Below, one piece after another: positions 20,146 to 45,896 of a DNA stretch of 64,000 nucleotides. The notes under the pieces were generated by a model. It searched no databases and had not been told where the DNA came from. It was given only the letters and a program-made list of their open reading frames with translations. Each line of letters begins with the position of its first letter. Positions within the stretch are counted from its first letter, which is position 1. The DNA is from a virus, in IMG/VR virus record IMGVR_UViG_3300009124_000002, positions 55,004-119,003 of that record; one strand, given 5' to 3'. The translations under genes were made by a program, and so were the position numbers.

Positions 20146-20838
20146 TCATAGTCCAAAAGCAGTAATGGTATGTTCAAATGGATTGCCTTCAATATTCTTC
20201 ACCAAGTCAAGCATCATCTGAGCAATCTCACGAATCTCTTTCTGAGCTTCCGGTTTGTTTCGCAATCCCTGAAAGTGATAGAATGATCTCCAGTTGAACA
20301 TCACATCTGACGTAATCCTGCTATTGTAGGTCTTGAAGAATCGAGCAGATTCCTTGGCACGTTTGCGACCCAGAACAGGTTCAAGATCAGCAACACATTG
20401 GTGATAAAGGTCATTTCCTTTTCTGGTATATTGTTCTAAAACCTCAGTCCAGTATTCTGTTGGAAACGGAAACTCATTTCCGTTAATATCCCTTGGCACA
20501 ATGGGCGGGGGAGATTTCTTAATACCAGCCCAATCATCAGGCACAATATACTTGTCTTCTTTCAGTTCCTTGTATCGAGCAGATTCAGCATTTAATGACA
20601 CTCCGATACGATGTTTAAGAAGGTGAATATGACTAGCAATATCGCAATCGACCAGAAAGTGCAGAGAAGACTTCTCGAAAGGTGTGTGGTGACCCTCTTT
20701 AGCGAGGAAGCTGAGTAGTTGCGGTATTCTGTTTCGTTTCTCATCTGTAATCTCTCGACTGGTGGAAGTCCATGCGCTACAGGCATGAACCTCATCATCA
20801 CCGTAGTATCCGATAAGTTCTACTGTATTATTGTTCAT
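20146..20838 (-). CDS. thyX: FAD-dependent thymidylate synthase
   Basis: GHHTPFE, HLLKHRIGVSLNAESARY (ThyX motif), ESARFF, NWRSF, AQKEIR. Confidence 0.92.
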   Translation of the reverse strand: MNNNTVELIGYYGDDEVHACSAWTSTSREITDEKRNRIPQLLSFLAKEGHHTPFEKSSLHFLVDCDIASHIHLLKHRIGVSLNAESARYKELKEDKYIVPDDWAGIKKSPPPIVPRDINGNEFPFPTEYWTEVLEQYTRKGNDLYHQCVADLEPVLGRKRAKESARFFKTYNSRITSDVMFNWRSFYHFQGLRNKPEAQKEIREIAQMMLDLVKNIEGNPFEHTITAFGL

Positions 20839-21074
20839 TAAACTTCTTCCAATGGGCAATGTTCACTTACTACTTCAATTTCTGCGTAATCAAAAAGCTC
20901 GTATCCGTGCAGCTTGAACACGGCGTCTTCAAAAACAACTTTGCCTTCAAGGTCGTAATATTCGTGATTTGCGAGAATCATTCTCGCCGTGATAGTGTCG
21001 CCCTCATAGATGTCAACACCATTCTTGTCCTTGAGTCCAGCGGGGGTGCGTAGATCGCGCTCTTGTTCTTTCAT
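20838..21074 (-). CDS. YopX-family protein (short)
   Basis: GLKDKNGVDIYEGD. Confidence 0.65.
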   Translation of the reverse strand: MKEQERDLRTPAGLKDKNGVDIYEGDTITARMILANHEYYDLEGKVVFEDAVFKLHGYELFDYAEIEVVSEHCPLEEV

Positions 21075-21121: not shown

Positions 21122-21622
21122 TCATTTGAAAATCCTGCGAATGTTCTCGTCGTCAATGTCAAATCCCTTTTTCAAGTATCTAGTCATTCTTCTTGCTTGA
21201 ATGATATTTCGATTCACAGTCTCTGGCATTCCTGCAAACCACTTTTCACTTCCACCAGTATAGACCAATTTCTTAGCATGAAGATGTGTGAAAAAATCGG
21301 GATGATGGCAACATTCTCCAAGGTTGTCTTTGGCAATACTACACACAGTATAATCGAAACACTCAATAGTTTCTTGTGGCGTTGCGCCCATGTGAAGCAA
21401 GTCATAAACCTTTCCTTCAAATTCAATTGAGTCACCAAGTCTTAGTTTCTTGACATGAGTGCCGCCTTTACTCAGCAATGTCTCTACTGCTCTTTCTCTT
21501 TCAGATTCAGTAGCAAAGAAGACATCAATGTCCTTTGGTGTTGTGTTTAAAAGCTCTGCAAGAACAGCACCACCAGCAACCCAACAGTGAGAATCAAAAT
21601 GGCTTAGGAAACTCTGAATCAT
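21122..21622 (-). CDS. Pol-beta-superfamily nucleotidyltransferase (CCA/poly(A) polymerase head-like)
   Basis: WVAGGAV...PKDIDVFF, FDYTVCSIA, R..RY.KKGF. Confidence 0.75.
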   Translation of the reverse strand: MIQSFLSHFDSHCWVAGGAVLAELLNTTPKDIDVFFATESERERAVETLLSKGGTHVKKLRLGDSIEFEGKVYDLLHMGATPQETIECFDYTVCSIAKDNLGECCHHPDFFTHLHAKKLVYTGGSEKWFAGMPETVNRNIIQARRMTRYLKKGFDIDDENIRRIFK

Positions 21623-22047
21623 TTTCCAGAAGAACCAAATCCACCCATACCACGATGAGTAGGATTGAAAAAATCATCAACTACTTCAAGTTCAAATGGA
21701 TCAACTCGCTCAAAGATGATTTGAGCAATACGATCCCCTTTCTTGAATTCAAATGGATCTTCACTGGTATTCAACAGAACAACCCCAATTTCATTGCGAT
21801 ATCCAGAATCAACTACACCAGCAAGAACATCAATACCATTCTTAACTGCAAGCCCAGAACGTGGGGCAATACGACCATAGTAACCGCGAGGAATTGCCAT
21901 TGCGATTCCCGTCTTTACAATGGTTCGAAATCCAGAAAAGACCTTGCCATCTTCATTAGCATAAATGTCCCATCCAGCATCATCTTCATGTGCCTTCGTT
22001 GGTACGAGTGCGTCGTCAGACAATTTTTTTATAGATACAATATTCAT
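21619..22047 (-). CDS. dut: Trimeric dUTPase
   Basis: AGWDI, RIAPRSGLA, GVVDSGYRNE, DRIAQ, RGMGGFGSSG. Confidence 0.95.
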   Translation of the reverse strand: MNIVSIKKLSDDALVPTKAHEDDAGWDIYANEDGKVFSGFRTIVKTGIAMAIPRGYYGRIAPRSGLAVKNGIDVLAGVVDSGYRNEIGVVLLNTSEDPFEFKKGDRIAQIIFERVDPFELEVVDDFFNPTHRGMGGFGSSGK

Positions 22048-23338: not shown

Positions 23339-23791
23339 TTAGATATTGATTTTACGGTATTCTACTTTTGCTTCTTTGAAGAATTCTGCTGCTCTCATTG
23401 TGGATGACATCCATTGTGGGGAAGCTTCCATTGTATTTACAATGACTCTCTTGATGCCTACCTGAATAACAGTCTTGGCGCATTCATGACAAACGGGAAG
23501 ACCATACACATAAAGAGTGGTGCCGTTCAGACACTTTCCTTTCCTTGCAGCAGTGCAGATTGCATTCACCTCTGCATGAACAGTGTAATTGTATTTCACG
23601 ACACGGTTTTCAAATCTTTCACCTGTATCTTGAAATCCACGGGGAAAGCCATTATATCCCATAGAGACAACATCATGACTTGGACCTTCTTCAGCAATCA
23701 CTGCACCAATCTTGGTTGTATCTTTAGACCAAGATGAGATGTGTTTTGCGAGCTCAAGGAACTTACGGTTCCACTTTTGCTCAGAGGTCAT
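23339..23791 (-). CDS. cd: dCMP deaminase
   Basis: SWSKD, MGYNGFPRG, VHAEVNA, PVCHECAK; start moved to MTSEQKW. Confidence 0.92.
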   Translation of the reverse strand: MTSEQKWNRKFLELAKHISSWSKDTTKIGAVIAEEGPSHDVVSMGYNGFPRGFQDTGERFENRVVKYNYTVHAEVNAICTAARKGKCLNGTTLYVYGLPVCHECAKTVIQVGIKRVIVNTMEASPQWMSSTMRAAEFFKEAKVEYRKINI

Positions 23792-23954
23792 TGGTTTTGT
23801 TTCGTTGTTCTTCACAAGCTTCGGCAATATATTCACAGTATTCTTGGAGGGTTTTGAGGTTAATGGACGAGACGGTAGAAAGACCATATTTGTCAATCAT
23901 TTGTTTTAATTCATTTGCCTTGACCATAATCTTGTGATGTGATGTTTCTTCCAT
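23781..23954 (-). CDS. Small hypothetical protein (57 aa)
   Basis: Hand-translated MEETSHHKIMVKANELKQ...; ATG 7 nt after a TATAAT. Confidence 0.4.
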   Translation of the reverse strand: MEETSHHKIMVKANELKQMIDKYGLSTVSSINLKTLQEYCEYIAEACEEQRNKTNDL

Positions 23955-23969
23955 TTCAATTATTATACA

Positions 23970-24521
23970 CTATTTTGAGGGAGAAGTAAACCACTTAGGT
24001 GTAGGGCGTTTTGTCCAGACCATCTTGAATCTCTTCTGTTTGGTCTTGTAGAAAGAACGATAGGAATTGATTGGATCTGGTCCCATGCATTCTGGATTTG
24101 AACTCATTGCCAAGCGGAATGGAGTCATTCCTGCAATTGGAATTGAATTTGGGCAATCTGCAAGGGCATCGATAAGCTTGGTCTCAGTGACATGAGTCTT
24201 TCCGTATCGATGAGTGTACTCCTCACACAAAGCGACAAAGAGTTCAAAATGCCAATAGTAATTGTCACTGCTTTCTCTTGTCCAAATAGCGCATGGGTGA
24301 TTGTAAGAGACGCACTGATACATTTGATTCTCACGGGCATCAGGCAGAACCCATGTGCGATGTTTGCGACCATTGCGAACCTGAATCTGCTCAGTGCCAT
24401 CCAGCATACGATGAGCAGTAGATAGCATCTGAGCAGATTCTAGGATCATCTTGACAACGTGCTTGTCACAGTGTTCACGGGCAGCAATCTCAGGGTTTTC
24501 ATTCAAGACAAAGATGTTCAT
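23970..24521 (-). CDS. Pyrimidine-dimer DNA glycosylase / DenV-related family protein
   Basis: MNIFVL, HCDKHVVKMILESAQMLS, NHPCAIW, EYTHRYGKTH. Confidence 0.75.
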   Translation of the reverse strand: MNIFVLNENPEIAAREHCDKHVVKMILESAQMLSTAHRMLDGTEQIQVRNGRKHRTWVLPDARENQMYQCVSYNHPCAIWTRESSDNYYWHFELFVALCEEYTHRYGKTHVTETKLIDALADCPNSIPIAGMTPFRLAMSSNPECMGPDPINSYRSFYKTKQKRFKMVWTKRPTPKWFTSPSK

Positions 24522-26607: not shown

Positions 26608-26934
26608 TTAGCTGATACCAGACCAACGAACCCTGCTGAAGTCACCAGTGAAGATGTTCCCGCGAGAGAAATTAGTGGCGGGAGCCTTCCATGAAGCTGC
26701 CTTGAGAATGTCGCCCTTGGCAAATCCCTTCTTGGGGTTGTCCTTCTTGGCAACAAACCCAACCACGCTCCTCTGATTCCCAGAGTCAACGAAAACCTTG
26801 TCGTAGTTGCGACCAGAATCGTCAAGGTGAAAGGTGTATCCAAGGCGAATTCCAGAAGGGCGATTGGCATCCTGCTTGCCCCAATCGTTTCGAATGTGGG
26901 AGAGGAGGTTGTTCAGTGCTTTTTCGTAGCTCAT
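26608..26934 (-). CDS. Conserved early phage protein
   Basis: GRNYDKV, SVVGFV, KGDILKAASWKAPA.N..RGNI; first gene after the early promoter; the track TTG start lies in the -35 box. Confidence 0.7.
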   Translation of the reverse strand: MSYEKALNNLLSHIRNDWGKQDANRPSGIRLGYTFHLDDSGRNYDKVFVDSGNQRSVVGFVAKKDNPKKGFAKGDILKAASWKAPATNFSRGNIFTGDFSRVRWSGIS

Positions 26935-26959
26935 AGCGTTCTTTCTCATTACGAGAAAG

Positions 26960-27024
26960 ATTCTGCCTGAAGATCGCGGATCCGACAACCCCTAAAAGCA
27001 CTTTTTTTCACTTTTTTCGTAAGC
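26960..27024 (-). promoter_or_regulatory. Early promoter P1 with A-tract UP element
   Basis: AAAAAAGTGAAAAAAAGTGC...TTGTCG-N17-CAGAAT-CTTTCTCG; near-identical architecture at 40173 and 42393. Confidence 0.8.
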
Positions 27025-27033
27025 TCCGCAGTA

Positions 27034-27585
27034 TTAGGAACTTACAACTTTCAGGAGAAAATCCACGATATTTTCAGTGTTTTCATGGGTTTCATGTGGC
27101 ATCTCGATCACGCATCCCTTCTCCTCTCCGAAAAGGGTCTGTTTTGGTCCGAACTCCGTGATAATATTCTGGACCTTGGTGCGGACTGTGGAGATGAACC
27201 TTTCGGGCTGACTCGAGCCTCTCTCGGCGTATCTCCGCTCCCTCTCGGCGTCCGAGACCGTCAGGTGGAGGATGGTCAGATCATCACCGCAGGAGGAAAA
27301 GAAAGTCTTGTTGTTTAGACGATCTCCTTCTCCCACGATCACTTCATTCGGTTTCCCAGAAACGAACTTGACTGCTTCAGGGCAAACCGCCATGGACAAG
27401 CGATCGGTTCCACTGAAAGTCTCGCCCTCTTCATACTTACCAAGCACACGAATGTTGCCTGATATATGAGTGTCAAGGAGATTGACAGGTCGATCCGAGG
27501 TCCACCCATCAAAACGACTCATGAATTCCTTCATGACCGTAGACTTGCCGGAGCCGGGAAGTCCAATGAGATAAACAACCTTCAT
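27034..27585 (-). CDS. P-loop kinase, putative hydroxymethyl-pyrimidine DNA kinase
   Basis: GLPGSGKST Walker A, LGKY..GETFSGTDRLSMAV, EGDRL, R..RG; last gene of the modification operon. Confidence 0.75.
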   Translation of the reverse strand: MKVVYLIGLPGSGKSTVMKEFMSRFDGWTSDRPVNLLDTHISGNIRVLGKYEEGETFSGTDRLSMAVCPEAVKFVSGKPNEVIVGEGDRLNNKTFFSSCGDDLTILHLTVSDAERERRYAERGSSQPERFISTVRTKVQNIITEFGPKQTLFGEEKGCVIEMPHETHENTENIVDFLLKVVSS

Positions 27586-28988
27586 GCGAAGAAATCGTCA
27601 AGTGTGCTTACTTGTTGGCGAGCTTCGGGGTGATATTGTTTGAGCATATCCTCGCCACCTCGGTCAGCAAGATAATCATACCATTCACCCTCATCCCACA
27701 TTGAAGGAGAAACTCCATTCCAAAATGGTTTCCAGAGAGGATGTTCCTCATTCTTGCGGCGATCATCAACGTATTGCTTACGAAGTGCTTCGTATTCCCA
27801 TGAGCCAAGCTTGTCCATATCTTCACGAAAATAGAAGACCAACGACATACGCAACATGTCTTCATCACCAGAATCAGGCGCAGAGATCGGAGTATTACCA
27901 TGAATGATTCTCATGTTATCAATCAGCAGTAGATCTCCCGGTCGAATGTTGATTGCTGCACGAACTTCTGGTGTTACCAGATAACCACCTTTCCAATCTT
28001 TACCGTCCTTGGTCACAACTGTGAGGTTGGAATACCCAGCATTCAAAGAACCGGCATCACGATGACAAGCCATGCGAGCATTGCGATCCTTGCTTGTGGT
28101 GTTAACAGTAATTGTAGTGAATGTGGTGTCTTCTCCGATTAGAAAGCGATTGTCAAGACGATCAGCAAACTCTTTCTGTTTTGCCCATCTTTCAGGAAGC
28201 AATCGCTTGAACTCAGCTTCAAGTTTGCGGGCAAAGGGGTAGCACTTATCAAACTGCTCTCGGTTATGATCGGTGTAAGCTGTTGCGCGACCATAAGGAA
28301 TCCGAGGATACCGACCATAGAAACCAGCAATGCCAGACCAGATTGGAGTAGCGTAACTGGTAGCAGAAACAAACTCTTTTCTCAGCTTCTTCGAGTATGC
28401 TTTAGCATCATCAATAGACATACCAATCATCTTCTCAAGAGCCAACGGGAAGAAACCTTCGTATGTCCCAAACTCTTTCTCAACTCGAGAGCGCAACCAC
28501 ACCTCACCGCGAGTCTCATACTTTTTGTTTTGGTGCTGTTGAAAGATGTTATCAAGAGGATCATCGCCATCGATAGACTGTGGTTGACCTTGTTCAAAGT
28601 GAGCAAGAATATCTTGCTGATAAGGAGTCACCCAATCTCTATTCCCGTCCTTGTCACCTCTGGGACCAGCTGCATGCCCACGGTTATTGGATTCAACAGC
28701 AGCTTCATACAGACCATCGAAAGCGCCAAGCTGTTCTTCCGGCGTGAACGTGCCTTTGCGAAACTTAAAGGCAACGCAATCTTCACCTAGCTCATCTCCG
28801 GCATCGAAGCCATTCTTTGGCAAGTAGAAATCAGCATCGCTATCAACAAGAATATCGTATGATCCCTCATCAACCAACTTACCAAGAAGGTCATCTTCAT
28901 TAACCACAAATTGGGCAATATAGACATCTTGACCCTCATCGCCTTTGAACTTCTTCCACTTCCGACCGTTTTTTTCGATTATTTCCAT
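27582..28988 (-). CDS. TET/JBP-family 2-oxoglutarate/Fe(II) dioxygenase
   Basis: FTTITVN...ACHRDAG (HxD), RPGDLLL, IHGNTPI (distal His), RMSLVFYFRE (2OG-binding Arg). Confidence 0.82.
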   Translation of the reverse strand: MEIIEKNGRKWKKFKGDEGQDVYIAQFVVNEDDLLGKLVDEGSYDILVDSDADFYLPKNGFDAGDELGEDCVAFKFRKGTFTPEEQLGAFDGLYEAAVESNNRGHAAGPRGDKDGNRDWVTPYQQDILAHFEQGQPQSIDGDDPLDNIFQQHQNKKYETRGEVWLRSRVEKEFGTYEGFFPLALEKMIGMSIDDAKAYSKKLRKEFVSATSYATPIWSGIAGFYGRYPRIPYGRATAYTDHNREQFDKCYPFARKLEAEFKRLLPERWAKQKEFADRLDNRFLIGEDTTFTTITVNTTSKDRNARMACHRDAGSLNAGYSNLTVVTKDGKDWKGGYLVTPEVRAAINIRPGDLLLIDNMRIIHGNTPISAPDSGDEDMLRMSLVFYFREDMDKLGSWEYEALRKQYVDDRRKNEEHPLWKPFWNGVSPSMWDEGEWYDYLADRGGEDMLKQYHPEARQQVSTLDDFFA

Positions 28989-29003
28989 ATCTGTTATATT
29001 CTA

Positions 29004-30017
29004 CTAAACTATGAACTTATCCAACCCAATATCATTTATCTCATTCGAGAAGGTGCCTCTATGATCAATCTTCCCACTATCAAGGAAGAGAGACATCTTA
29101 CCCTTATTCACACAATTTGTCAAGTATTCTTCTCGTAGAGTTTCTCTCCTTGCGTCCCACATAGGTTGCCAATCAATACCGAACCAATTGTCTCCCTCAA
29201 CCTTCTGAATCTCTTCAGCCTGTCGGTCAATGTAGTATCCAAGGTAGCGACCATTGCGAACTCGAAACAACTTCTTGAACGAACACAGACATGTTTCCAT
29301 GGCAAAATAATCTGCCTTGTCTGCTACATTAGGAAATCTCTTCCTCACTTCAGCCAGCATCTCTGCTGCCCTTGAATTCAACATAGAAAGTTGGTCCTTG
29401 TTTAGTCTCTGATTGACCCACTCGTCTTCACCAACAGCATAGCAAAGACCATTGCGATGAGAACGGCTTCCTGAGTAGTCATGCAACCAAAGATTGTCAA
29501 CATCCAGATTCACCTTGGCGCATTGCTTTAGAGTCTGAAGGTAGAACCATGAAGTGTAACGTCCGAACTTGTGCCAACCATTGACCTGCTCCCACAGGTT
29601 CTGAAAGGTTTGATTTGCATCATCAGTCAAATGCTCAGAAAACCTTTCGTGTTGCGTCTTATCGCCAACCCATTCCTTGTAAGACTCAAACTGATCAGCC
29701 AAATGCCCCTTGTTCCATTTGGTGTCCGTTTGATAGCGCAACCGACTGTAGTTTTCGTTGTTCCACTCACGAAGACGTTCAACACCTACCAACTCCATAT
29801 CAGGAAATTCATTCCAGATGAGGTAAGCTGTGGGGAAGTGATACGTTGTCCCATACAACCAAACCAACCAATACTTTTGCTCAAGATTGTATTCAAACCG
29901 ATCAAAGAAATAGTTGGTCATGTAGAGAGCAGAGTCGCAATCATCTAACTCAAGGGACCAACCAAACCAATTGATGAATGCTTCTTCTCTGTTTTCTTTA
30001 AGTCTGTAATCCATCAT
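29004..30017 (-). CDS. Amino acid:DNA transferase / alpha-glutamyl-putrescinyl-thymine pyrophosphorylase-like (HhH glycosylase fold)
   Basis: WLVWLYGTTY, KFGRYTSWFY (HhH-like), METCLCSFKK, RYLGYYIDR. Confidence 0.75.
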   Translation of the reverse strand: MMDYRLKENREEAFINWFGWSLELDDCDSALYMTNYFFDRFEYNLEQKYWLVWLYGTTYHFPTAYLIWNEFPDMELVGVERLREWNNENYSRLRYQTDTKWNKGHLADQFESYKEWVGDKTQHERFSEHLTDDANQTFQNLWEQVNGWHKFGRYTSWFYLQTLKQCAKVNLDVDNLWLHDYSGSRSHRNGLCYAVGEDEWVNQRLNKDQLSMLNSRAAEMLAEVRKRFPNVADKADYFAMETCLCSFKKLFRVRNGRYLGYYIDRQAEEIQKVEGDNWFGIDWQPMWDARRETLREEYLTNCVNKGKMSLFLDSGKIDHRGTFSNEINDIGLDKFIV

Positions 30018-30658
30018 AGAAACGCATCTATTGTAACTGGTTCTGCGATACTTTCAAGAGAATTTCTGAGCCATGAATCACCAACAGCCTTGATTGCCCC
30101 AAGAACCTTCTCTGTTTTCTTGACGCCAAATCCATGAGACTCAAGGGATTCATTTAAAAATTGACACACAACCTTGGCGTCTGGAACGGCAAGTTTCGGA
30201 GACGCTATAGCTTTCTCTCGAAACTCAAGTTGTTCCTTGCGGGTTGGGAAAAGTGGCTGGTCGCTGCGCAATGAGCCAGAACGATCCACTGCCCAGAACA
30301 CAAGACCGTTTCGATTATGCCATGTCACAGAAGTTGGAGTACATGATAACTTCAATCTTCTCATACCCGAGTTGTATGCATCAGCCATGACTTCCTCCCA
30401 TATGCGACTTGCATATCCATTGCCTTCTTTGCCTTCGATTGTGACTATCTCATAAAGGTTAATATACTTCGACCTTTGGCTGTATGTGGCAAATACAAGG
30501 GCGACGACTTCTCCGTTATCCTTTAGTGCAAAGGGAGGGTGCTTATCATAATTCTTGAAGCGATACCAGAGGCTATGAGCAGCAGAAAGAAACTTGGTGT
30601 TCTTTCCCGGCGAAGACTCATTGATAATATCCTCGGTGTTTTTAATTCTTTCTATCAT
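30014..30658 (-). CDS. GNAT-family acyltransferase
   Basis: INLYEIVT..GKEGNGYASRIW (acetyl-CoA motif A), LKLSC...WHNRNGL. Confidence 0.75.
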   Translation of the reverse strand: MIERIKNTEDIINESSPGKNTKFLSAAHSLWYRFKNYDKHPPFALKDNGEVVALVFATYSQRSKYINLYEIVTIEGKEGNGYASRIWEEVMADAYNSGMRRLKLSCTPTSVTWHNRNGLVFWAVDRSGSLRSDQPLFPTRKEQLEFREKAIASPKLAVPDAKVVCQFLNESLESHGFGVKKTEKVLGAIKAVGDSWLRNSLESIAEPVTIDAFL

Positions 30659-31326
30659 CGCTGCAAGTCCTTTATTTGATTCTCTTCAATAAAGTCTCTG
30701 TGCATGTCCATTATGGTTCTTTGTGCGCTATATTGACGAAACATTTCGCACTTCTGGGGATTAACCAAACCAGCTCGAAGAGCGATATCTTTGGTTGAGG
30801 TAAAAACAACATCACTGTCATTGAACACTGTTTTCCAAAGAGGTCTTGCCTCATTACGATATGCCCAAATCATTTTAGACGCATGAAGTTCAATCACTGC
30901 CATACTACTAGGGCGAAAGAAAGTGAGTGGGTTCTTATCGTTCTCAAGCGCACGAAGAATAAGCTCGCTGTCATTTTTGGTTTCAGTCTTGTAACACCAT
31001 TTGTCTGGTGGTTCCTGAGATATGACGCCATTGTGAACTATGGAGATTTGTCCATTGCTAAATGGTTGATTGTATCTTAGGTCTGATGTTGAGTATCGAA
31101 TGTGACCAATAAGAGAAACGCTTCCATCAGAATCAATCACCCGATTAAGGTCAAACGTATCAAGAAACTCTTCTGACGGAACGCTTTCCTTGAATGTTTT
31201 CAATACACCATCAACCACATAACTGATTCCTGTTGCGTGTTTTCCGCGAATCATAGACTGTTGGAAGATCCTTTGAATCAACCCAACGTCTGCCTGTTTC
31301 ATTTGTATTCCGATTACTGCGCACAT
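30655..31326 (-). CDS. Class II (Ntn) glutamine amidotransferase-like, stand-alone
   Basis: N-terminal M-C nucleophile (MCAVIG), RGKHATG, GHIRYST, NQPF, HNGVI, NDSEL, RPL. Confidence 0.85.
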   Translation of the reverse strand: MCAVIGIQMKQADVGLIQRIFQQSMIRGKHATGISYVVDGVLKTFKESVPSEEFLDTFDLNRVIDSDGSVSLIGHIRYSTSDLRYNQPFSNGQISIVHNGVISQEPPDKWCYKTETKNDSELILRALENDKNPLTFFRPSSMAVIELHASKMIWAYRNEARPLWKTVFNDSDVVFTSTKDIALRAGLVNPQKCEMFRQYSAQRTIMDMHRDFIEENQIKDLQR

Positions 31327-32260: not shown

Positions 32261-34771
32261 TCAAACAAAGAAATCTTCAAGAGTTACAATCTTCTCCGGT
32301 GCCCAGCCAATCGCATCAAGAACGAACTTCAGTGGCTCAAGAAATGCTTTCTCAAACTGTAGGTCATGATTGATGTATTTCTCCAACCCAAACTCTTCAG
32401 GCAGAACTGAGTTGAACGCAATGACATTTTCGCGAATAGGGTTTGGGATATGCAAGTAGACATACTTCATCTTGTCTCCGTTACGAATAGACTCAAACCG
32501 ATTCTGAAGACCGTTTTTCTTCAGGTGGTGATTGTAGAGAAGTGACGCTCGAACGTGCATTGGAGTCCCCTTGTCGTAGATATTAAGGTTGTCTTGATAG
32601 TTGGTCACGTTTGACACGCCACGGGGAAAGGCGATCTTCTCGACCGGGATCTCACGAAAGGCTTTCTTGAAGTCAGCGATTGCTGCTTGTGTCGTTTCCT
32701 CATCGGTGGTAAGGATAATCTTAAACATCTCCTTCATCGCTTCCCGGCAGACTTGAGGTGTTGAAGACTTGACTGCCTCGATGCCCATGATCTTCAGTTT
32801 TGGTTTTGCATACTGAACACCCTCACTGTTGTGAACATTCAGGATGTATCGTTTCTTGGCAGTCCAGATACCACGGTCAGCAATCACTTCCCGTGCCATG
32901 ACCATACGATTCTTGTATGAGTTCATGGTCACTGCAAAACGCTCAAACGCTTTCTTCAGAACAGGCTCGATTGCAGTTGAACCAAGTTCATCAAGGAACG
33001 CAACCGGGTCTTTTGGTTTTGCTTTTTGAATAACATCGTTGACATTCACATAAACAGAGTCAGTGTCAATCGCAACCACTCGGTCTTTGTCCTCACCAAG
33101 TGCTTTGTTAAGGTATGCATTCAGTTCTTTCTCTGCATACCGAATCACAGACTGACCTGTCAGAGTCACGCCTTCAGCAATACGCAAGTCAAAGTATCGA
33201 AACCATATGTTGCCCATTGCGCCATACAAGGAGTTGAGTAGAATCTTCACTGCCATCTGCTCAGTCTCACAACGAGCAATCTCTCTTTCAATCGATGGGC
33301 TTGACCCCTCTTGCTCCATGCGTTGTTGTGCCTTGAGCATTTGCTGTTTGATCATGACACGCTTGTCATACAACTCCTGAATGATCTCAGGAATGATACC
33401 CTGCTTGTCCTTACGATAGCATGAACCATTTGCAGCAACAGAAACATCATCTTCAGTAAGGCAACTATCTGCCTCAAGCACCTTGTCAGGATTCAATCCA
33501 TCGATACGAGTATGCGGTATCAAAGTCTCTGGTGACATATTGCATTGAATGATGATGTTGGGATACAGAGAGTTCAAGTCAAAGGACATCACCCAATCAT
33601 GAAGACCAACATGAGGTTCCTTGACATACCCACCAGTGAATCCCGTCCGATGATGCTTCTTGCTTGGAGGAATTGCGACCTTCTGTTGCGCCAATCTGCG
33701 AAAGATGATAGAGTCCCAGATACCCACGGTCCCAAGTGTGTCGCTATAGTTTACGCCACCAAGGTATGCCATCGTCAGAACCAGATTGATAAGACCAACC
33801 TTGTCTTCCATCTTCTCAATCAACTCAACGTCCACGATATTGTAGTCAACGAAACGCTGATAGTCCTGCTCATAGAGTTTCTTGAGTGACCCCAAGTCAG
33901 TGTAGTCTACCTTCTTTGTGCCAAGCACAACATTAGCAATGTGATCAAGCTTGTATGATTCTTGATTGCCATACTTGTAACCGAACTTCTTGAACAGGTC
34001 TAGGTAGTCCAACTGTTCGATACCCTTGATCTCAAAGGCAAGTTGTTCCTTGCCCATCATCTTGATAGTCTTAGCATCATACAACCCCCATGGCGAGAGC
34101 TTCTTTGCCTCTTTTGCCCCTAAGACGTTTACAATGCGATTTACAATGTAAGGGATATCAAAGAACCGAGTGTTCCACCCAGTAATAATGTCTGGTGTGT
34201 GATCCTTGTTTGACCACCAAGCAAGGAAAGACTGGAGCATAGAGACTTCATCGGGGTATTCGTAGTATTCGATCTGAAGCCCAGTGGTGGTTTGATGTGG
34301 GTTGTAGCTCTTACCAAAACCCCAGATGCGATAGATGTCTTCTCGACTCGACTTCAAGGCGATAGTGAGGATCTCTTGATTGGCGATATGCGGATGAGGA
34401 AACCCATCATCATATGCAGTCTCAATGTCAATGTAAACAACATCGACGTTCCTTGGTTCAAACTCAATCTTGCCGGGAAACCTCGACTGAATGAATGCTG
34501 GAATGTGTCTGTCATTACCATGAATGGTATATCCATCGACACCCTCATACAATTTGATAAACTCACCCGCCTCACGCATGGTGTTGAACTTCATAGGCTC
34601 AAGCGAGGAACCAGCAAGGGATTGCCATTGAGAGGGTGAGGAGTTTTTGGATTCAAGGTAGAGTGTGGGCTTGAACGAAACCCTTTCCTCAACTCGCTTT
34701 CCTTGATTGTCGTATCCTCGGTAGAGGATCTTGTTTCCGTATTTGCAAATGGAAGTGTAAAACCCGGTCAT
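32261..34771 (-). CDS. gp43: Family B DNA polymerase (T4 gp43-like)
   Basis: DIET exonuclease, GWN..FFD, SFDLNSLYP, KILLNSLYG, IDTDS, KKRY; C-terminal TLEDFF. Confidence 0.97.
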   Translation of the reverse strand: MTGFYTSICKYGNKILYRGYDNQGKRVEERVSFKPTLYLESKNSSPSQWQSLAGSSLEPMKFNTMREAGEFIKLYEGVDGYTIHGNDRHIPAFIQSRFPGKIEFEPRNVDVVYIDIETAYDDGFPHPHIANQEILTIALKSSREDIYRIWGFGKSYNPHQTTTGLQIEYYEYPDEVSMLQSFLAWWSNKDHTPDIITGWNTRFFDIPYIVNRIVNVLGAKEAKKLSPWGLYDAKTIKMMGKEQLAFEIKGIEQLDYLDLFKKFGYKYGNQESYKLDHIANVVLGTKKVDYTDLGSLKKLYEQDYQRFVDYNIVDVELIEKMEDKVGLINLVLTMAYLGGVNYSDTLGTVGIWDSIIFRRLAQQKVAIPPSKKHHRTGFTGGYVKEPHVGLHDWVMSFDLNSLYPNIIIQCNMSPETLIPHTRIDGLNPDKVLEADSCLTEDDVSVAANGSCYRKDKQGIIPEIIQELYDKRVMIKQQMLKAQQRMEQEGSSPSIEREIARCETEQMAVKILLNSLYGAMGNIWFRYFDLRIAEGVTLTGQSVIRYAEKELNAYLNKALGEDKDRVVAIDTDSVYVNVNDVIQKAKPKDPVAFLDELGSTAIEPVLKKAFERFAVTMNSYKNRMVMAREVIADRGIWTAKKRYILNVHNSEGVQYAKPKLKIMGIEAVKSSTPQVCREAMKEMFKIILTTDEETTQAAIADFKKAFREIPVEKIAFPRGVSNVTNYQDNLNIYDKGTPMHVRASLLYNHHLKKNGLQNRFESIRNGDKMKYVYLHIPNPIRENVIAFNSVLPEEFGLEKYINHDLQFEKAFLEPLKFVLDAIGWAPEKIVTLEDFFV

Positions 34772-34779
34772 GAGCATAC

Positions 34780-35789: not shown

Positions 35790-36200
35790 CTATTTGCCTC
35801 CTTGAGACATAGAACTAACGACATCTTTGATTTGTTCTTTAGTCAGAACAGAAATTGCCTCGCGAGCTCTCTGAGAAGAGTATGAGTATCGCTTCATGAA
35901 ACACTCAACAGTGTGATCATCGGCAATCGCTTTGGCGAACTTAGCAAAACGCTTTCTTGGTTTAACGCTGCTCTTCAAAAAGTCATACTGCATCTTCGGC
36001 GGCAAGTGATGATGTTGATTCATCTCATTAGCAAAGAAAACAGTATCCATGAAGTTCGAAAGAGAACGGTTTACCAAAAAGGCTGAGTAAGACTTTGATG
36101 GTGAGTCAGGATCAAGTTCATCTTCAAGCGCATTGAATCCATCGAAGAGACTCTTCTTGCTTGCTGAGTTGATGCTGTTTACAAATTCAAATGGATTCAT
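35790..36200 (-). CDS. gp62: Clamp loader small subunit
   Basis: NPFEFVNSIN, Y.AFLVNRSLS.F.DTV..ANEMN, QYDF, RKRF. Confidence 0.9.
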   Translation of the reverse strand: MNPFEFVNSINSASKKSLFDGFNALEDELDPDSPSKSYSAFLVNRSLSNFMDTVFFANEMNQHHHLPPKMQYDFLKSSVKPRKRFAKFAKAIADDHTVECFMKRYSYSSQRAREAISVLTKEQIKDVVSSMSQGGK

Positions 36201-37132
36201 TTCCACTTCACCTTTACCATCAATTCAGTCAGGCATGCCATCAAATTGATTTCTTTATCAGCCACAAAAGCTGACTTGTAGCTGTAATCAGCGATGATTA
36301 GAATAGATTCAGCAACTGATTCTGTGGTCATATATTGACTTAGATTGTCATACAAAGCTCTGAATGTAACGGTGCCATCAAGCACGTTATTGTTCGCCAC
36401 CCACTTGCGGATGTCGCCAAACTTCTTCTCGCGCAGCATGCCCATCATCTCATGAATAGACTCATCGGATACCGAGATAAGAACGTCTGGGGTAATCTTA
36501 CCTGTGGTGCTGTGCCGTTGACACTCATTCAGAACACGACGCCAGTCAGGAGCGTGTTTCATGATCAGGTCAACTAGAACCTTGGTGTCATACTCAACTC
36601 CCTCTTTCTTGAGGATATCTTCGAGTCGCCGAAGGAAAGTGGCACAAAGCTTTTGTAGCTCGCTTTTCTTGAAGTTGAAGTCAAAACCCGAACACCGGGA
36701 GTGTAGTGGCTCAATGATTCTGTTCTTGAAGTTACAAGTCAGAATGAATCGACAGTTTGCGCTAAACTCTTCAATGAAAGCACGAAGGGCGGGTTGAGTT
36801 GAGTTTGCATTTAGGTAATCTGCTTCATCCAGAATCACAACACGATACCCACCAGTCAGAGACATGCTTGATGCAAAATTTTTGATCTTGTTGCGGAGCG
36901 TATCAATGCCACTCTCTTCAGAGCAGTTCACTAGAAGGTATTCAAGATTCAACTCATTACAGAGTGCCTTGGCGACAGTAGTCTTCCCAAGACCAGCAGT
37001 CCCAGAAAAGAGCATGTTCGGAAGTTCACCTGAACTAACAAACCCCTTGAAGGTGTTCAGGATATCGGCGGGAAGAATGATGTCTTCAATGATTTGTGGG
37101 CGATACTTTTCGACCCAGAGGAATTCTTTCAT
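36197..37132 (-). CDS. gp44: Clamp loader large subunit
   Basis: LWVEKYRP, GTAGLGKTT, ILDEAD, IEPLHSRC. Confidence 0.95.
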   Translation of the reverse strand: MKEFLWVEKYRPQIIEDIILPADILNTFKGFVSSGELPNMLFSGTAGLGKTTVAKALCNELNLEYLLVNCSEESGIDTLRNKIKNFASSMSLTGGYRVVILDEADYLNANSTQPALRAFIEEFSANCRFILTCNFKNRIIEPLHSRCSGFDFNFKKSELQKLCATFLRRLEDILKKEGVEYDTKVLVDLIMKHAPDWRRVLNECQRHSTTGKITPDVLISVSDESIHEMMGMLREKKFGDIRKWVANNNVLDGTVTFRALYDNLSQYMTTESVAESILIIADYSYKSAFVADKEINLMACLTELMVKVKWK

Positions 37133-37205: not shown

Positions 37206-37517
37206 TCAGTCAGCACCTTCAGCGGTGACTTCTTCTCCTTGTTTTGCTTGCTCCTCTACCTCTTCTTCAGTGGTTGCCTCAGTCTTTGGAGCATTCTCCT
37301 CCAAAAATGCTTGCAGACGTTCACCAAGGGTTCCTACGTTTTTCAACTCATTGAGTTCAAATGCACCACGACGGGATGCTGCTTTAAGAACTTCAACGGT
37401 GAAAGCAATATCACTCAAAGAGATACTTGCCTTTTGTTCCTTTGGTTCCCATCCATCCTTTACGGTGGATGCCCCTTCTTCCACTTGTTCTGTTTCTTTA
37501 TCCATATCTTTATCCAT
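37206..37517 (-). CDS. Conserved acidic hypothetical protein
   Basis: ISLSDI...ASRRGAFE..EL..VG.L.ERL..FL. Confidence 0.6.
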   Translation of the reverse strand: MDKDMDKETEQVEEGASTVKDGWEPKEQKASISLSDIAFTVEVLKAASRRGAFELNELKNVGTLGERLQAFLEENAPKTEATTEEEVEEQAKQGEEVTAEGAD

Positions 37518-38184
37518 TGAATGTTGATGCCTTATCCACTGCGATGAAGTATTCAACTTTGGTATCGTCAGCAGTATTTGCCCATTTACTTATAAGCTTT
37601 GAACTAATTTGAACCAGATAGTCGCCAGCCACCAAGGACAAGTTGTTGAGGTCAAAGTGCATGTCAAAGGCAACTTTGCTCTCATGATCAAGTTCAATGC
37701 TGAACTCATTTGAAGACTTGTCCTTATCGTTCAAGGTTGAAAAACGAGTCTTTCCTTTACCCTTAGAATGAATATGGCAAAAACTACACCCAAGAGTGCG
37801 AGCAGCTGTATCAATAGTCTGCCGATCAGGGTGAGTGATAACCAACTCAACATCAACAGATGGCAAGGCGATATCCTTCGGGGGAGTCTCGAGAGTTGCC
37901 GTCTCTGCTCTGGTATAGCGCACTCGCTGATTCCCAGACTTCATGATCACTAACCTGTCATCAAACTCAAGGTCAGCGTCATCAAGGATCTTGTAAATCG
38001 CTAGGAAGTTCTTGAGATTGTAGATACCAAACTCTTGTGGGAAGGTTTCTTCAATAGTAGCACTTCCGAGGACAGTGCGTGAACTGGAGATGGTCTTGAG
38101 CGTGGATCCCGGTTTGATCAGGATATTGTCGTTAATGAGAGAGAAGTTCTCGAGGATTCGTTTAGTGTTATTCGATAGTTTCAT
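37510..38184 (-). CDS. gp45: Sliding clamp
   Basis: MKLSNNT..ILENFS.IN, FGIYNL..FL, GDY.V.IS, YFIA. Confidence 0.9.
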   Translation of the reverse strand: MKLSNNTKRILENFSLINDNILIKPGSTLKTISSSRTVLGSATIEETFPQEFGIYNLKNFLAIYKILDDADLEFDDRLVIMKSGNQRVRYTRAETATLETPPKDIALPSVDVELVITHPDRQTIDTAARTLGCSFCHIHSKGKGKTRFSTLNDKDKSSNEFSIELDHESKVAFDMHFDLNNLSLVAGDYLVQISSKLISKWANTADDTKVEYFIAVDKASTFNG

Positions 38185-38960: not shown

Positions 38961-40142
38961 TTAGAGAGTTTCATCAACGGACTCAGCGGCAGCAGGGACT
39001 TCATCGCCCAGCTTGTCGTAAAGGTCATTGAAGGAATCCTTGGTATCATTGTCAAAGCGGCGAATGCAGAATTCAATCGACTTCTTCTCATCTTGAAAGA
39101 TGGAGTAGGTCTGGACAATGTGGCAGAGACGACGGGTTGAGATAAACTCTTCAACTCCTCCATCCTCAAAGGTCTTGCGAATCACTTCGCTCCATGCAGT
39201 GAGTTTGTCGGCAAACTTCTCGACCACACACTCAAACTTCTCCATGTGCTTTTTGACAATCTTGGTTTCAACAGCACGGGAAGGATAAGGCTGTTCAAGA
39301 GTTGCAGGGAATCGCTCAAGGAAAGCATCATCGATGATACCAGCAGCACTGTAGCGACCATCATCAGAACCGCGTCCCTTGGTGTTAGCAGTAGCGACAA
39401 CAGTGAAACCAGCTGCGGGAGAAACAACCTCACCAGTCTTCTTGACCAGCACTGGCTTGCCTTCCAGAACACCTTGGAGACACATAATCTTGTTGGTGCC
39501 TCGATCAATCTCATCAATGAGAAGAACAGCACCAGATTCCATTGCCTTGAGAACCGGACCTTTCTGAAAAACAGTCTCTCCATTGATGAGACGAAACCCG
39601 CCAATCAGGTCATCCTCATCAGTCTCAGGGGAAATCTGGACACGAACATACTCACGCCCCAATTGAGCACAAGCCTGTTCGACCATGAAGGTCTTGCCGT
39701 TGCCAGAGAGACCAGCAATGTAGAAGGGAAAGAACTGCTCGCTCTTCAGAGCAGTCTTCAAATCCTTGAAGTGACCCCAAGGGACAAAGGTATCGTCCTT
39801 GGAGGGAATGAAAACGGAGTCATTGATCACAGAGGAAACGCTCGCAGCAAGAGCCATCGATGCAGGAGCCTCTTGAACCGGAGCCGGGATGGTCTCAGTC
39901 TTGCGCTTTGCCCTTGGTGCAGCCTTTGCTTTGGTCTTTGTTGGAGTCCCGAACGACCACTGTCCGCGATCAACTCGAGTCATGTGCTTTGCAACCATGG
40001 ACCTAGCTTGGGGATCAGTCAAACCAAGAGCCATGCCTTCTCGGACTAGATCCTTCAGAGGATAGAGATCAAGATCTCCATAGGCTTTCACGATAGAGGT
40101 CTTCAGGGATTCGAACTGGATGTTGTCTTTAGCGGGTTTCAT
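38961..40142 (-). CDS. MoxR/CobS-like AAA+ ATPase
   Basis: GLSGNGKT, ETDEDDLIGG, LLIDEID, ATANTKGRG, AFLERF, ISTRRL. Confidence 0.9.
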   Translation of the reverse strand: MKPAKDNIQFESLKTSIVKAYGDLDLYPLKDLVREGMALGLTDPQARSMVAKHMTRVDRGQWSFGTPTKTKAKAAPRAKRKTETIPAPVQEAPASMALAASVSSVINDSVFIPSKDDTFVPWGHFKDLKTALKSEQFFPFYIAGLSGNGKTFMVEQACAQLGREYVRVQISPETDEDDLIGGFRLINGETVFQKGPVLKAMESGAVLLIDEIDRGTNKIMCLQGVLEGKPVLVKKTGEVVSPAAGFTVVATANTKGRGSDDGRYSAAGIIDDAFLERFPATLEQPYPSRAVETKIVKKHMEKFECVVEKFADKLTAWSEVIRKTFEDGGVEEFISTRRLCHIVQTYSIFQDEKKSIEFCIRRFDNDTKDSFNDLYDKLGDEVPAAAESVDETL

Positions 40143-40172
40143 AATGTAAGGGTCTTTCAATCTACGAGAGAG

Positions 40173-40252
40173 ATTCTAATCCATTTCAGAGGGCAAGACA
40201 ACCCCTCAGAGCACTTTTTTTCACTTTTTTTTCCATGCGTAAGTTGTTGATT
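40173..40252 (-). promoter_or_regulatory. Early promoter P2 with UP element and IHF-consensus box
   Basis: TTGTCT-N17-TAGAAT; AAAAAAAAGTGAAAAAAAGTGC; AATCAACAACTTA at 40252-40240 equals WATCAANNNNTTR. Confidence 0.8.
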
Positions 40253-40261
40253 TTTAGCGGT

Positions 40262-42385: not shown

Positions 42386-42392
42386 GAGAGAC

Positions 42393-42479
42393 ATTCTGCC
42401 TGAAATCTCGATATCAGACAACACTTTTAGAGAACTTTTTTACGTTACCGTTAAAGGTGTTGATTTTCAACAACTTACG
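42393..42479 (-). promoter_or_regulatory. Early promoter P3 with inverted IHF-like boxes
   Basis: TTGTCT-N17-CAGAAT; GTTGATTTTCAAC palindrome at about 42459-42471. Confidence 0.75.
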
Positions 42480-45273: not shown

Positions 45274-45324
45274 TCATGGAGTGGTCTTACCCGACCCCGG
45301 TTGTCCAAAGATGGAGATAATCAT
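45274..45324 (-). pseudogene. Remnant of a P-loop kinase gene (16 codons)
   Basis: ATGA-coupled to the gp55 stop; reads MIISIFGQPGSGKTTP*. Confidence 0.6.
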
Positions 45325-45896
45325 TTCATGAAAGGCTCAAGGGTGTTCTCATTGGAAGCGAGTTTCTTTTTCTTACGAACCTTCTTTCCAAACTCCTTGA
45401 TCTTGGAATCCCTATCACGAATCTTATCAGCACGGGAACGAAGACGTTCTACGATACCCTGACCCTGAACCATATCACCATCAAAGTCACCAAAGTTCTC
45501 GATGCCAGCATGTTCCTTGTAGAGTTCCTTGATATCCTGATGTTTCTTTTCTTTGGAGATCCTACGCAGAAAGGCATAGTAGGATATCTGTGTGAAATAA
45601 GCAAAGGCGTTGGGGTTACCAGTGCGAGTAGTCTTGGTTACATCGTAATTGTTGATTGCTTTAATGCAATTCTCTACTGCATCACTAACCATTTCATCAC
45701 GGTAGGTGTAGCAAGCAAAATTGGGTTTATGGGAAAGACCTTCTGCAATCTTGAGAAAGCAAGTTCCGATATATTCAGTAACGATAGGAGCAGATTTACC
45801 AACTTCCTTTGAGGCATTTACGGAATTGACATACTTAACCACTGCACCTGAGAATTCTTTGTTGTTAACATAATGATTCGGTTTTTCATTTTTCAT
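45321..45896 (-). CDS. gp55: Late-transcription sigma factor
   Basis: HYVNNKEF, KIAEGLSHKPNF..YTYRDEM.SD..ENC, NAFAYFTQI.YYAFLRRI.KEKK. Confidence 0.95.
   Translation of the reverse strand: MKNEKPNHYVNNKEFSGAVVKYVNSVNASKEVGKSAPIVTEYIGTCFLKIAEGLSHKPNFACYTYRDEMVSDAVENCIKAINNYDVTKTTRTGNPNAFAYFTQISYYAFLRRISKEKKHQDIKELYKEHAGIENFGDFDGDMVQGQGIVERLRSRADKIRDRDSKIKEFGKKVRKKKKLASNENTLEPFMK

Follow-up and report, generated by a model that had tools for sequence, protein, structure and literature searches.

The window analysed here is a 64-kb stretch of viral DNA, the final 64 kb of the 119-kb IMG/VR record IMGVR_UViG_3300009124_000002, which is estimated to be 66% complete. Five genes at window positions 27034-31326 very probably form a cassette for post-replicative thymidine hypermodification in an uncultured T4-like marine phage. 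In gene order, they encode a glutaminase, a GNAT N-acyltransferase, an amino acid:DNA transferase (AADT), a TET/JBP dioxygenase and a P-loop kinase. The cassette belongs to the TET-initiated, kinase/AADT-based thymidine hypermodification clusters published by Lee et al. 2021 (Nucleic Acids Research, NAR; PMC8989533) and O'Toole et al. 2026 (PNAS; PMC13229309). It is set apart from the described examples by the lack of a ParB gene in the sequence present, by a pairing of glutaminase and AADT that points to glutamine-dependent amination, and by clamp-type C-terminal tails on three of the enzymes. The best explanation of the cassette as a whole is a clamp-tethered pathway with glutamine-dependent amination, which we consider probable on balance. 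Post-replicative thymidine hypermodification shields phage DNA from the nucleases of the host and is a source of DNA-acting enzymes for biotechnology; the gaps in the published TET-linked clusters are the role of the ever-present glutaminase and the reason why the enzymes act after replication.

The region 27034-31326 is filled by five minus-strand open reading frames (ORFs), and the ORF listing gave exactly the limits of an earlier note on this DNA. The first gene (30655-31326) encodes a 223-aa N-terminal nucleophile (Ntn) class II glutaminase that starts with Met-Cys and matched GATase_6 with 31.3 bits (cut-off 27). The GNAT gene (30014-30658) encodes 214 aa and matched Acetyltransf_1 with 28.2 bits (cut-off 20.7). 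The AADT, a clade 2 aGPT-Pplase of 337 aa (29004-30017), matched ADDT (PF18724) with 90.7 bits (cut-off 26.2; E value 1.5e-25). The 468-aa TET/JBP 5-methylpyrimidine dioxygenase (27582-28988) matched Tet_JBP (PF12851) with 57.6 bits (cut-off 34.9), and the 183-aa P-loop kinase (27034-27585), a putative 5-hydroxymethyluracil (5hmU) DNA kinase, matched Ploopntkinase3 with 56.4 bits (cut-off 27; 3.6e-15). The GNAT, AADT and TET/JBP proteins each end in a polymerase-like C-terminal tail. Genes 1/2, 2/3 and 4/5 overlap by 4 bases, and a gap of 15 bases lies between genes 3 and 4. Upstream, a primase-like gene (PHROG 9765) overlaps the glutaminase gene by 13 bases, and a family-B DNA polymerase gene also lies upstream. 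All five products exceeded their Pfam gathering scores, so that the profile searches proposed in the earlier note were positive for every family. Its description of five coupled genes with recognisable catalytic motifs was borne out by the ORF limits, the Pfam scores and the conservation of the motifs in orthologues.

The Tet_JBP domain occupies residues 239-389 of the TET protein, and an N-terminal part of about 230 aa is conserved as well. Residues H309, D311 and H363, the HxD...H iron triad, and R380, the 2-oxoglutarate-binding arginine, were invariant in 35 sequences. The AlphaFold2 (AF2) model had a mean predicted local distance difference test score (pLDDT) of 83.4 and was matched by Foldseek to CcTet, NgTet1, TET2 and CMD1 with E values of 3e-9 to 1.5e-6 and a probability of 1.0. 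The protein belongs to a long TET family with at least 2,277 relatives, most of which had 460-490 aa among the 120 matches listed. Elsewhere, members of this family have other partners. A TET-associated glycosyltransferase (TAGT; Pfam TAGT 2.1e-13) was found in locus L008, and family members located beside TAGT in related contigs or beside UDP-galactopyranose mutase in phage C48C1 are 65-73% identical. In Caulobacter phage Cr30 the long TET is adjoined by an AADT and a TAGT-like gene. Because all of these other partners need a hydroxymethyl acceptor, the triad and the arginine are kept, and the model resembles DNA-acting TETs, T is the economical reading of the TET substrate.

Two of the cultured phages showed further features around TET. 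In C48C1 (OQ984149, 6926-10373; locus L001), the long TET gene (67% identical) is followed by genes for a 344-aa protein and a UDP-galactopyranose mutase (Pfam GLF 5.6e-52), which hints that this cultured T4-like phage may carry galactofuranosyl-5hmU, a sugar modification similar to base J. In Cr30 (KF301602, 5995-12468; locus L109), the genes for the long TET (39% identical), AADT (Pfam 1.3e-52), a TAGT-like protein and inositol-1-phosphate synthase lie in a row, and the record labels them as 'SNF2 DNA repair protein' and hypothetical proteins. Cr30 is a ready experimental model of TET-initiated thymine hypermodification. Together with Cr30, Stenotrophomonas phage DLP_6 and phage C48C1 are cultured relatives for experiments.

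The earlier note had seen no hydroxymethylase or C5-methyltransferase and had concluded that thyX, dCMP deaminase and dUTPase supply canonical dTTP, and both statements held. PF00303 (ThyA-type) and PF00145 (C5-methyltransferase) gave no match in the 66%-complete window record or in five related records (99-154 kb, 55-85% complete), and the control genomes were matched. The only methyltransferase beside the polymerase of a relative, that of C48C1, was a Dam-type N6-adenine enzyme. ThyX (20146-20859), dUTPase (21619-22047) and dCMP deaminase (23339-23896) are all encoded on the minus strand of the window, so ordinary dTTP would be made and T, not 5hmU, would enter the DNA at replication.

The kinase has its Walker A motif at residues 8-15 and showed a weak pairwise match to gp49 of phage PaMx11, the 5-hmdU DNA kinase of Lee et al. 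2021 (E value 0.002, 23% identity over 143 residues). In the AADT, G152, R153, E241, T242 and C245 were invariant in 42 sequences. E241, T242 and C245 aligned with Glu243, Thr244 and Cys247 of the solved PaMx11 gp46, whose sequence was taken from the phage record, and were invariant in 8 diverse sequences. The two AADTs are 21% identical, and Asp26/Asp28 are also conserved. In the published structure of gp46, the C5 methyl group is at a pocket bordered by Asp24, Tyr47 and Tyr51; these three residues aligned with D28, Y55 and Y59 of the window AADT, which are adjacent in sequence to a segment of the predicted interface described below. The glycine-holding residues Trp146 and Lys150 of gp46 aligned with H129 and T137, which fall in variable columns, and these pocket residues are therefore not conserved in an alignment that is tentative at 21% identity. 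The AADT profile found no chain in the Protein Data Bank (PDB) at E values up to 0.1, though the structure of gp46 has been published. All AADT matches in cultured phages were below 60% identity, and the best were about 28% identical. A search for longer relatives of the AADT found one fusion only, with a pyridoxal phosphate (PLP)-dependent enzyme. A natural fusion of AADT and P-loop kinase, P0133 (482 aa), was also observed.

The glutaminase residues C2, R27, R77, N99, G100 and D119 were invariant in 42 orthologues. By analogy with GlmS and PurF, we take C2 to be the nucleophile and N99-G100 the oxyanion pair, with R77 and D119 presumably holding glutamine. When the glutaminase profile was compared with solved structures, PurF came first (3.1e-7), followed by GlmS and AsnB, and no EgtC entry was found at E values up to 1. 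A PDB search with the single sequence found nothing.

A complex of the glutaminase and the AADT was predicted with an ipSAE of 0.75 (0.82, 0.73 and 0.75 in separate runs), while the best of three controls reached 0.01. In calibration, 58 of 80 solved complexes and 2 of 110 mismatched pairs attained this value, a calibration that applies only roughly because our own alignments of 42 orthologues per protein were used. The runs shared at least 76% of contacts, with a partner pLDDT of at least 88. On the glutaminase side, the predicted interface comprises residues 1, 25-30, 78, 80 and 100-101, which are the catalytic face, as well as the conserved D-L-Q tail; on the AADT side it comprises residues 39-47, 69-73 and 279-285. 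By our tally, 14 of 25 glutaminase and 12 of 20 AADT interface residues fall in invariant columns, and the invariant glutaminase positions include residue 1, R27-H30, Y78, T80 and G100 around the active site. The glutaminase C-terminus (window 30655-30666), which touches the AADT in the predicted complex, reads D-[LMI]-Q in 53 of 55 distinct C-termini.

The two proteins also occur as natural fusions. P0124 (588 aa), found through longer relatives of the glutaminase, consists of an N-terminal glutaminase and a C-terminal AADT. It was then used as the query against 1.84 billion cluster representatives. P0124, P0128, P0136, P0138, P0146 and P0148 carry both Pfam domains, and P0127 and P0143 are glutaminase-AADT fusions by full-length alignment only. 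Identity of the other fusions to P0124 is 31-50%. The R-Y-S-T and E-[ST]-x-x-C motifs of the two active sites are preserved in all 8, and six start with Met-Cys-Gly. The order of the domains is that of class II amidotransferases. Because of the predicted complex, the fusions, the PurF-like profile and the lack of conservation at the glycine-holding positions, ammonia from glutamine is favoured as the nucleophile of the AADT. The glutaminase would then serve as the NH3 donor to the AADT, a role that we assign with moderate confidence. The earlier note had offered two roles for the glutaminase; the supply of NH3 gained from the predicted complex, the fusions and the PurF-like profile, and cleavage of a Gln/Glu adduct is now less favoured.

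In the GNAT, the acyl-CoA motif A (E78-G79-x-G81-Y82) was invariant in 25 sequences. Its AF2 model (pLDDT 95.0, predicted template modelling score 0.87) was closest in Foldseek to single-domain N-acetyltransferases with amine substrates, such as SpeG, Ard1 and GCN5, with E values from 4.8e-6, and not to tandem aminoacyl-transferases. A single-sequence search of the PDB gave weak matches only, and tblastn against cultured phages gave no match for this GNAT at E values up to 1e-3. Acetylation of the new amine, as performed by PaMx11 gp48, would be the simplest role of the GNAT, with the acyl donor and acceptor assigned by analogy.

Clamp-type tails were searched for among all record ORFs of at least 50 aa with the strict motif [STG][LI][DE]xF[FLMIV] at the C-terminus. 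The motif ended 5 of 303 minus-strand ORFs and 0 of 326 plus-strand ORFs. The five proteins were the gp43-like family-B DNA polymerase (32261-34777, minus strand), which bears the reference tail, the gp55-like late sigma factor (45321-45896, minus strand; PHROG 234 1.9e-50), TET, AADT and GNAT. Among distinct orthologue C-termini, the tail was present in 50 of 56 for TET, 38 of 60 for AADT, 25 of 34 for GNAT and 6 of 7 for the polymerase, and in 0 of 53 for the kinase, 0 of 55 for the glutaminase and 0 of 21 for the amidoligase of related cassettes. It also ended 12 of 1071 unassigned ORFs, several of which are glycosyltransferase-like genes adjoining TET. In C48C1 the polymerase and TET alike carry the tail, and the TET of DLP_6 has a near-variant. 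As a single control, the short TET of siphovirus P12024L was without the tail. The C-termini of T4 gp43, gp55 and gp33 bind the clamp, according to a review of T4 late transcription. TET, AADT and GNAT are proposed as clients of the gp45 clamp because they share the tail with the phage polymerase and late sigma factor, and it is likely, judging by the motif, that they are tethered to the clamp in this way.

Recurrence of the cassette was investigated in viral contigs gathered around TET (12 loci), GNAT (18 loci) and AADT (the best 80 of 153 relatives), with ORFs assigned by BLASTP. The counts are of contigs, with near-identical ones retained, and not of lineages. Among the best 80 AADT loci, the kinase was found in 73, TET in 64, the glutaminase in 59, the window type of GNAT in 45, a second GNAT type in 23, a GCS-like amidoligase in 28 and a 430-aa protein in 23, and many of the genes missed fall at contig ends. 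When the count was confined to AADT loci flanked by 4.5 kb or more in each direction, 24 of 24 had glutaminase, TET, kinase and a GNAT, and the GNAT was of the window type in 14. These results answer the question of co-occurrence raised in the earlier note. Thirteen of the 24 had the gene set of the window (10 in the gene order of the window, 3 with TET first), and one had this set plus the amidoligase. The remaining 10 were of a second type with glutaminase, amidoligase, second GNAT, mostly the 430-aa protein, AADT, TET and kinase. The two GNATs gave a BLASTP E value of 13 against each other; a single GNAT family across the cassettes was rejected and two types were counted. At the 18 loci gathered around the window type of GNAT, the glutaminase adjoined it in 18 of 18, each absent AADT or kinase fell at a contig end, and this GNAT was never found outside the cassette. 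The cassette is a real and recurrent unit.

The second cassette type was seen at L012:12040-14795 and about 30 other loci, such as L002, L010, L036, L063 and L101. Three genes are inserted here between glutaminase and AADT, encoding a GCS/GS-like amidoligase (weak match to Pfam Amidoligase_2), the unrelated GNAT and the 430-aa ParB-like protein. The last was not recognised by Pfam and matched PHROG 1033, ParB-like partition proteins, at 6e-7. The amidoligase C-terminus is conserved in its own way, roughly as [FY]-H-E-V-A, and this type of cassette probably makes a larger adduct. Neither the amidoligase nor the 430-aa protein was found in the window record (by tblastn for the latter), and ParB (PF02195) had no match at E values up to 0.1 in the 119 kb of this 66%-complete record.

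These observations suggest the following pathway. TET/JBP would hydroxylate T in DNA to 5hmU, as the context and the published relatives indicate, and the P-loop kinase, judged by its family, would phosphorylate 5hmU. Cys245 of the AADT would attack C6, with expulsion of the phosphate and acceptance of a nucleophile, a mechanism published for relatives whose residues are conserved here. The nucleophile would be ammonia released from glutamine by the AADT-docked glutaminase, the pair acting as a split PurF-like amidotransferase that forms 5-aminomethyl-deoxyuridine (5-aminomethyl-dU) in one step. The GNAT would N-acylate the new amine, probably to 5-acetylaminomethyl-dU; this exact product is put forward tentatively. 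TET, AADT and GNAT would probably travel on the gp45 sliding clamp in the wake of the replication fork. Such a glutamine-dependent path to 5-aminomethyl-dU would need neither glycine nor a flavoenzyme. It is possible, though we would not call it probable, that a split PurF-like amidotransferase acting on a phosphorylated base in DNA represents the first glutamine-dependent amination of DNA, with a clamp tool-belt of TET, AADT and GNAT that rewrites T directly behind the fork without a modified nucleotide pool. We speculate that recruitment by the clamp could explain why some such enzymes are poorly active or inactive when alone in E. coli.

Several points weigh against this pathway. Stand-alone class II glutaminase-like proteins can be amide hydrolases, as EgtC is. 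The glutaminase is also fused to a GNAT in P0123 (445 aa) and to an amidoligase in P0242 (523 aa), so the fusions may mark membership of a shared pathway and not an ammonia channel. The score of the complex is the model's own confidence, and some effect of likeness to the PurF-type glutaminase-acceptor pairs in the PDB is possible. Clamp binding is proposed from the motif alone, and a reported contact between T4 alpha-glucosyltransferase and gp45 was not reproduced in a recent preprint on the T4 glucosyltransferases. The GNAT matched PaMx11 gp48, the proven 5-NmdU acetyltransferase, only weakly in BLASTP (E value 0.025, 24% over 100 residues). The stretch that is absent from the record could encode a hydroxymethylase, methyltransferase or ParB. 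According to O'Toole et al. 2026 (PMC13229309), activity on T or 5-methylcytosine (5mC) could not be detected for some clade C1 enzymes that lack a ParB partner; neither PF02195 nor tblastn found a ParB in the window record.

Two other readings concern the chemistry at the AADT. The glutaminase-like protein may be an EgtC-type gamma-glutamyl amide hydrolase. The AADT would then add a gamma-glutamyl compound through a thiol or second amine, the Ntn enzyme would remove glutamate and the GNAT would acetylate the freed amine, in a mercapturate-like scheme on DNA. The glutaminase is a separate polypeptide in the window, which is unusual for NH3-donating class II enzymes, and either role is compatible with the conservation of residues that contact the alpha-amino and alpha-carboxyl groups of glutamine or a gamma-glutamyl group. 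Related cassettes place a GCS/GS-like amidoligase beside the glutaminase, an arrangement that resembles the EgtA/EgtC pair, but the window type of cassette is without it. A thiol, beta-mercaptoethanol, was shown to react with the AADT intermediate (Lee et al. 2021, PMC8989533). The profile search, however, returned PurF, GlmS and AsnB and no EgtC up to its limit, the recurrent fusions have the architecture of amidotransferases, and it is the active-site face of the glutaminase that meets the AADT in the predicted complex. The missing clamp-type tail of the glutaminase (0 of 55), unlike TET, AADT and GNAT, also fits a small-molecule rather than a DNA substrate. We consider such a hydrolase unlikely. 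Installation of an ordinary amino acid (glycine, serine, glutamate or similar), as in M6, ViI and SP10, with tailoring of the adduct by glutaminase and GNAT (for example amidation and N-acetylation) to a larger new base, appears similarly improbable. It would agree with the use of amino acids or putrescine by all characterised AADTs (Lee et al. 2021, PMC8989533), with the catalytic Glu/Thr/Cys and the Asp26/Asp28 residues shared with gp46, and with the fusions of the glutaminase to amidoligase and GNAT. However, amidation of a carboxylate needs an ATP-dependent ligase, of which there is none in the window cassette, the glycine-binding Trp146/Lys150 of gp46 are not conserved in the 21%-identity alignment, and the predicted interface and the fusions suggest that ammonia is used by the AADT.

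TET may instead act on 5mC, with the cassette hypermodifying cytosine and the methyl group coming from the host or from a phage methyltransferase outside the record. Phage TETs of clades A and B oxidise 5mC (Burke 2021, PMC8256090), and the record is incomplete. The absence of PF00145 matches from this record and the five related records, up to 85% complete, and the Dam-type N6-adenine specificity assigned to the one methyltransferase beside a relative's polymerase speak against this. In addition, kinase and AADT are known only from thymidine pathways (Lee et al. 2021), and a C5-methyltransferase occurred in only 6% of mined pathways (O'Toole et al. 2026, PMC13229309). Cytosine is accordingly a very improbable target, and oxidation of T, followed by glutamine-dependent amination, remains the preferred reading.

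The surroundings of the cassette are a T4-type replication module containing the polymerase, the primase-like gene, RegA, Hsp20, the clamp loader genes (36197-37132 and 35790-36206), a gp45-type sliding clamp (37510-38184, minus strand; PHROG 223 2.5e-60 and Pfam gp45-slide_C), UvsX, dCMP deaminase, dUTPase, ThyX and the gp55-like sigma factor. The window polymerase is at most 48.5% identical to any polymerase of a cultured phage, with C48C1 and cyanomyoviruses as the nearest. Searching the cassette DNA against 50,697 phage records gave a single partial match, to the TET gene of C48C1 only, at 68.7% identity. A 126-aa DUF7717 protein (26608-26988) is encoded directly downstream of the kinase and has a relative in the same place in L043 and L044. 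A 183-aa protein at 23970-24521 matched PHROG 624 'DNA binding protein' and weakly Pyr_excise; its relatives, together with a MazG/PRA-PH-like gene, lie a few genes upstream of TET in at least 7 related loci (e.g., L025, L083, L101 and L106). Beside the replication module, 38961-42424 encodes a CobS/CobT-like pair of an AAA_5 ATPase (399 aa) and a 720-aa protein, the latter matching PHROG 459 'peptidase' and, more weakly, cobalamin biosynthesis proteins.

Much of this route is in print. Lee et al. 2021 (PMC8989533) reconstituted the kinase, AADT, flavin-lyase and acetyltransferase steps. They also described metavirome contigs without dUMP hydroxymethylase in which TET_JBP lies beside T-hypermodifying genes, proposed in-situ conversion of T to 5hmU, and left open the function of co-associated amidoligase and 'glutaminotransferase' genes. 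O'Toole et al. 2026 (PMC13229309) demonstrated the oxidation of T in DNA by phage enzymes from two clades, with one subclass dependent on a ParB-like activator; one subclass was 'consistently linked' with GATases, P-loop kinases and AADTs, and GNAT was among the co-occurring domains. A wholly new system was therefore rejected, as TET-initiated kinase/AADT clusters appear in both papers. The central inference of the earlier note already stands in the literature as a hypothesis, with its first step demonstrated experimentally for relatives; the order TET, kinase, AADT, nitrogen substituent and GNAT held, and the novelty was overstated. Neither a function of the glutaminase nor clamp-type tails are given in the available parts of the two papers. 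The glutaminase-AADT pairing appears to be new in print, although the window contig or its clade may be in their supplementary listings. A limited literature search found no publication tying such tails to hypermodification enzymes, and this link also appears to be new.

Compared with the published clusters, in particular the clade C1 'ParB-dependent' neighbourhoods, the window cassette shares TET/JBP, P-loop kinase, AADT and glutamine amidotransferase and the lack of a nearby C5-methyltransferase or dUMP hydroxymethylase, as far as these papers describe them. It differs in that the 119-kb record has no ParB-like gene in the sequence present, and its TET has 468 aa, whereas ParB-independent enzymes have about 290-300 aa (O'Toole et al. 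2026). PaMx11 gp46-gp49, which makes 5-acetylaminomethyl-dU, likewise has adjacent kinase, AADT and GNAT genes, with the AADT Glu/Thr/Cys aligned and likely the same intermediate (5-aminomethyl-dU) and end product. In PaMx11, TET is absent, a ThyA-type gene lies in the vicinity and the amine comes from glycine through the FAD-dependent lyase gp47, whereas the window cassette has a glutaminase and no flavoenzyme; the AADTs are 21% identical and the GNATs match at E value 0.025.

The closest analogy is PurF, an enzyme in which the leaving group replaced by ammonia is a (pyro)phosphate on the acceptor. Among solved structures, PurF also gave the best match to the glutaminase, with an N-terminal Cys nucleophile, conserved glutamine-binding residues and the same domain order as the fused forms. 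In the window, however, the two halves are encoded separately, on either side of the GNAT gene, an AADT takes the place of the phosphoribosyltransferase, and a base of polymeric DNA would be the acceptor. The clamp-binding C-termini of T4 gp43, gp55 and gp33 resemble the tails in that a flexible linker leads to a short terminal motif of hydrophobic and acidic residues, and in the record this is found on the polymerase and the gp55 homologue. Here the motif is also present on three DNA-modifying enzymes and, in related phages, on TET-associated glycosyltransferases. In base J (JBP with a glucosyltransferase) and TAGT systems, the likeness lies in the same long TET family, which adjoins TAGT or UDP-galactopyranose mutase in related phages; the window cassette differs in using the kinase/AADT branch and not glycosylation.

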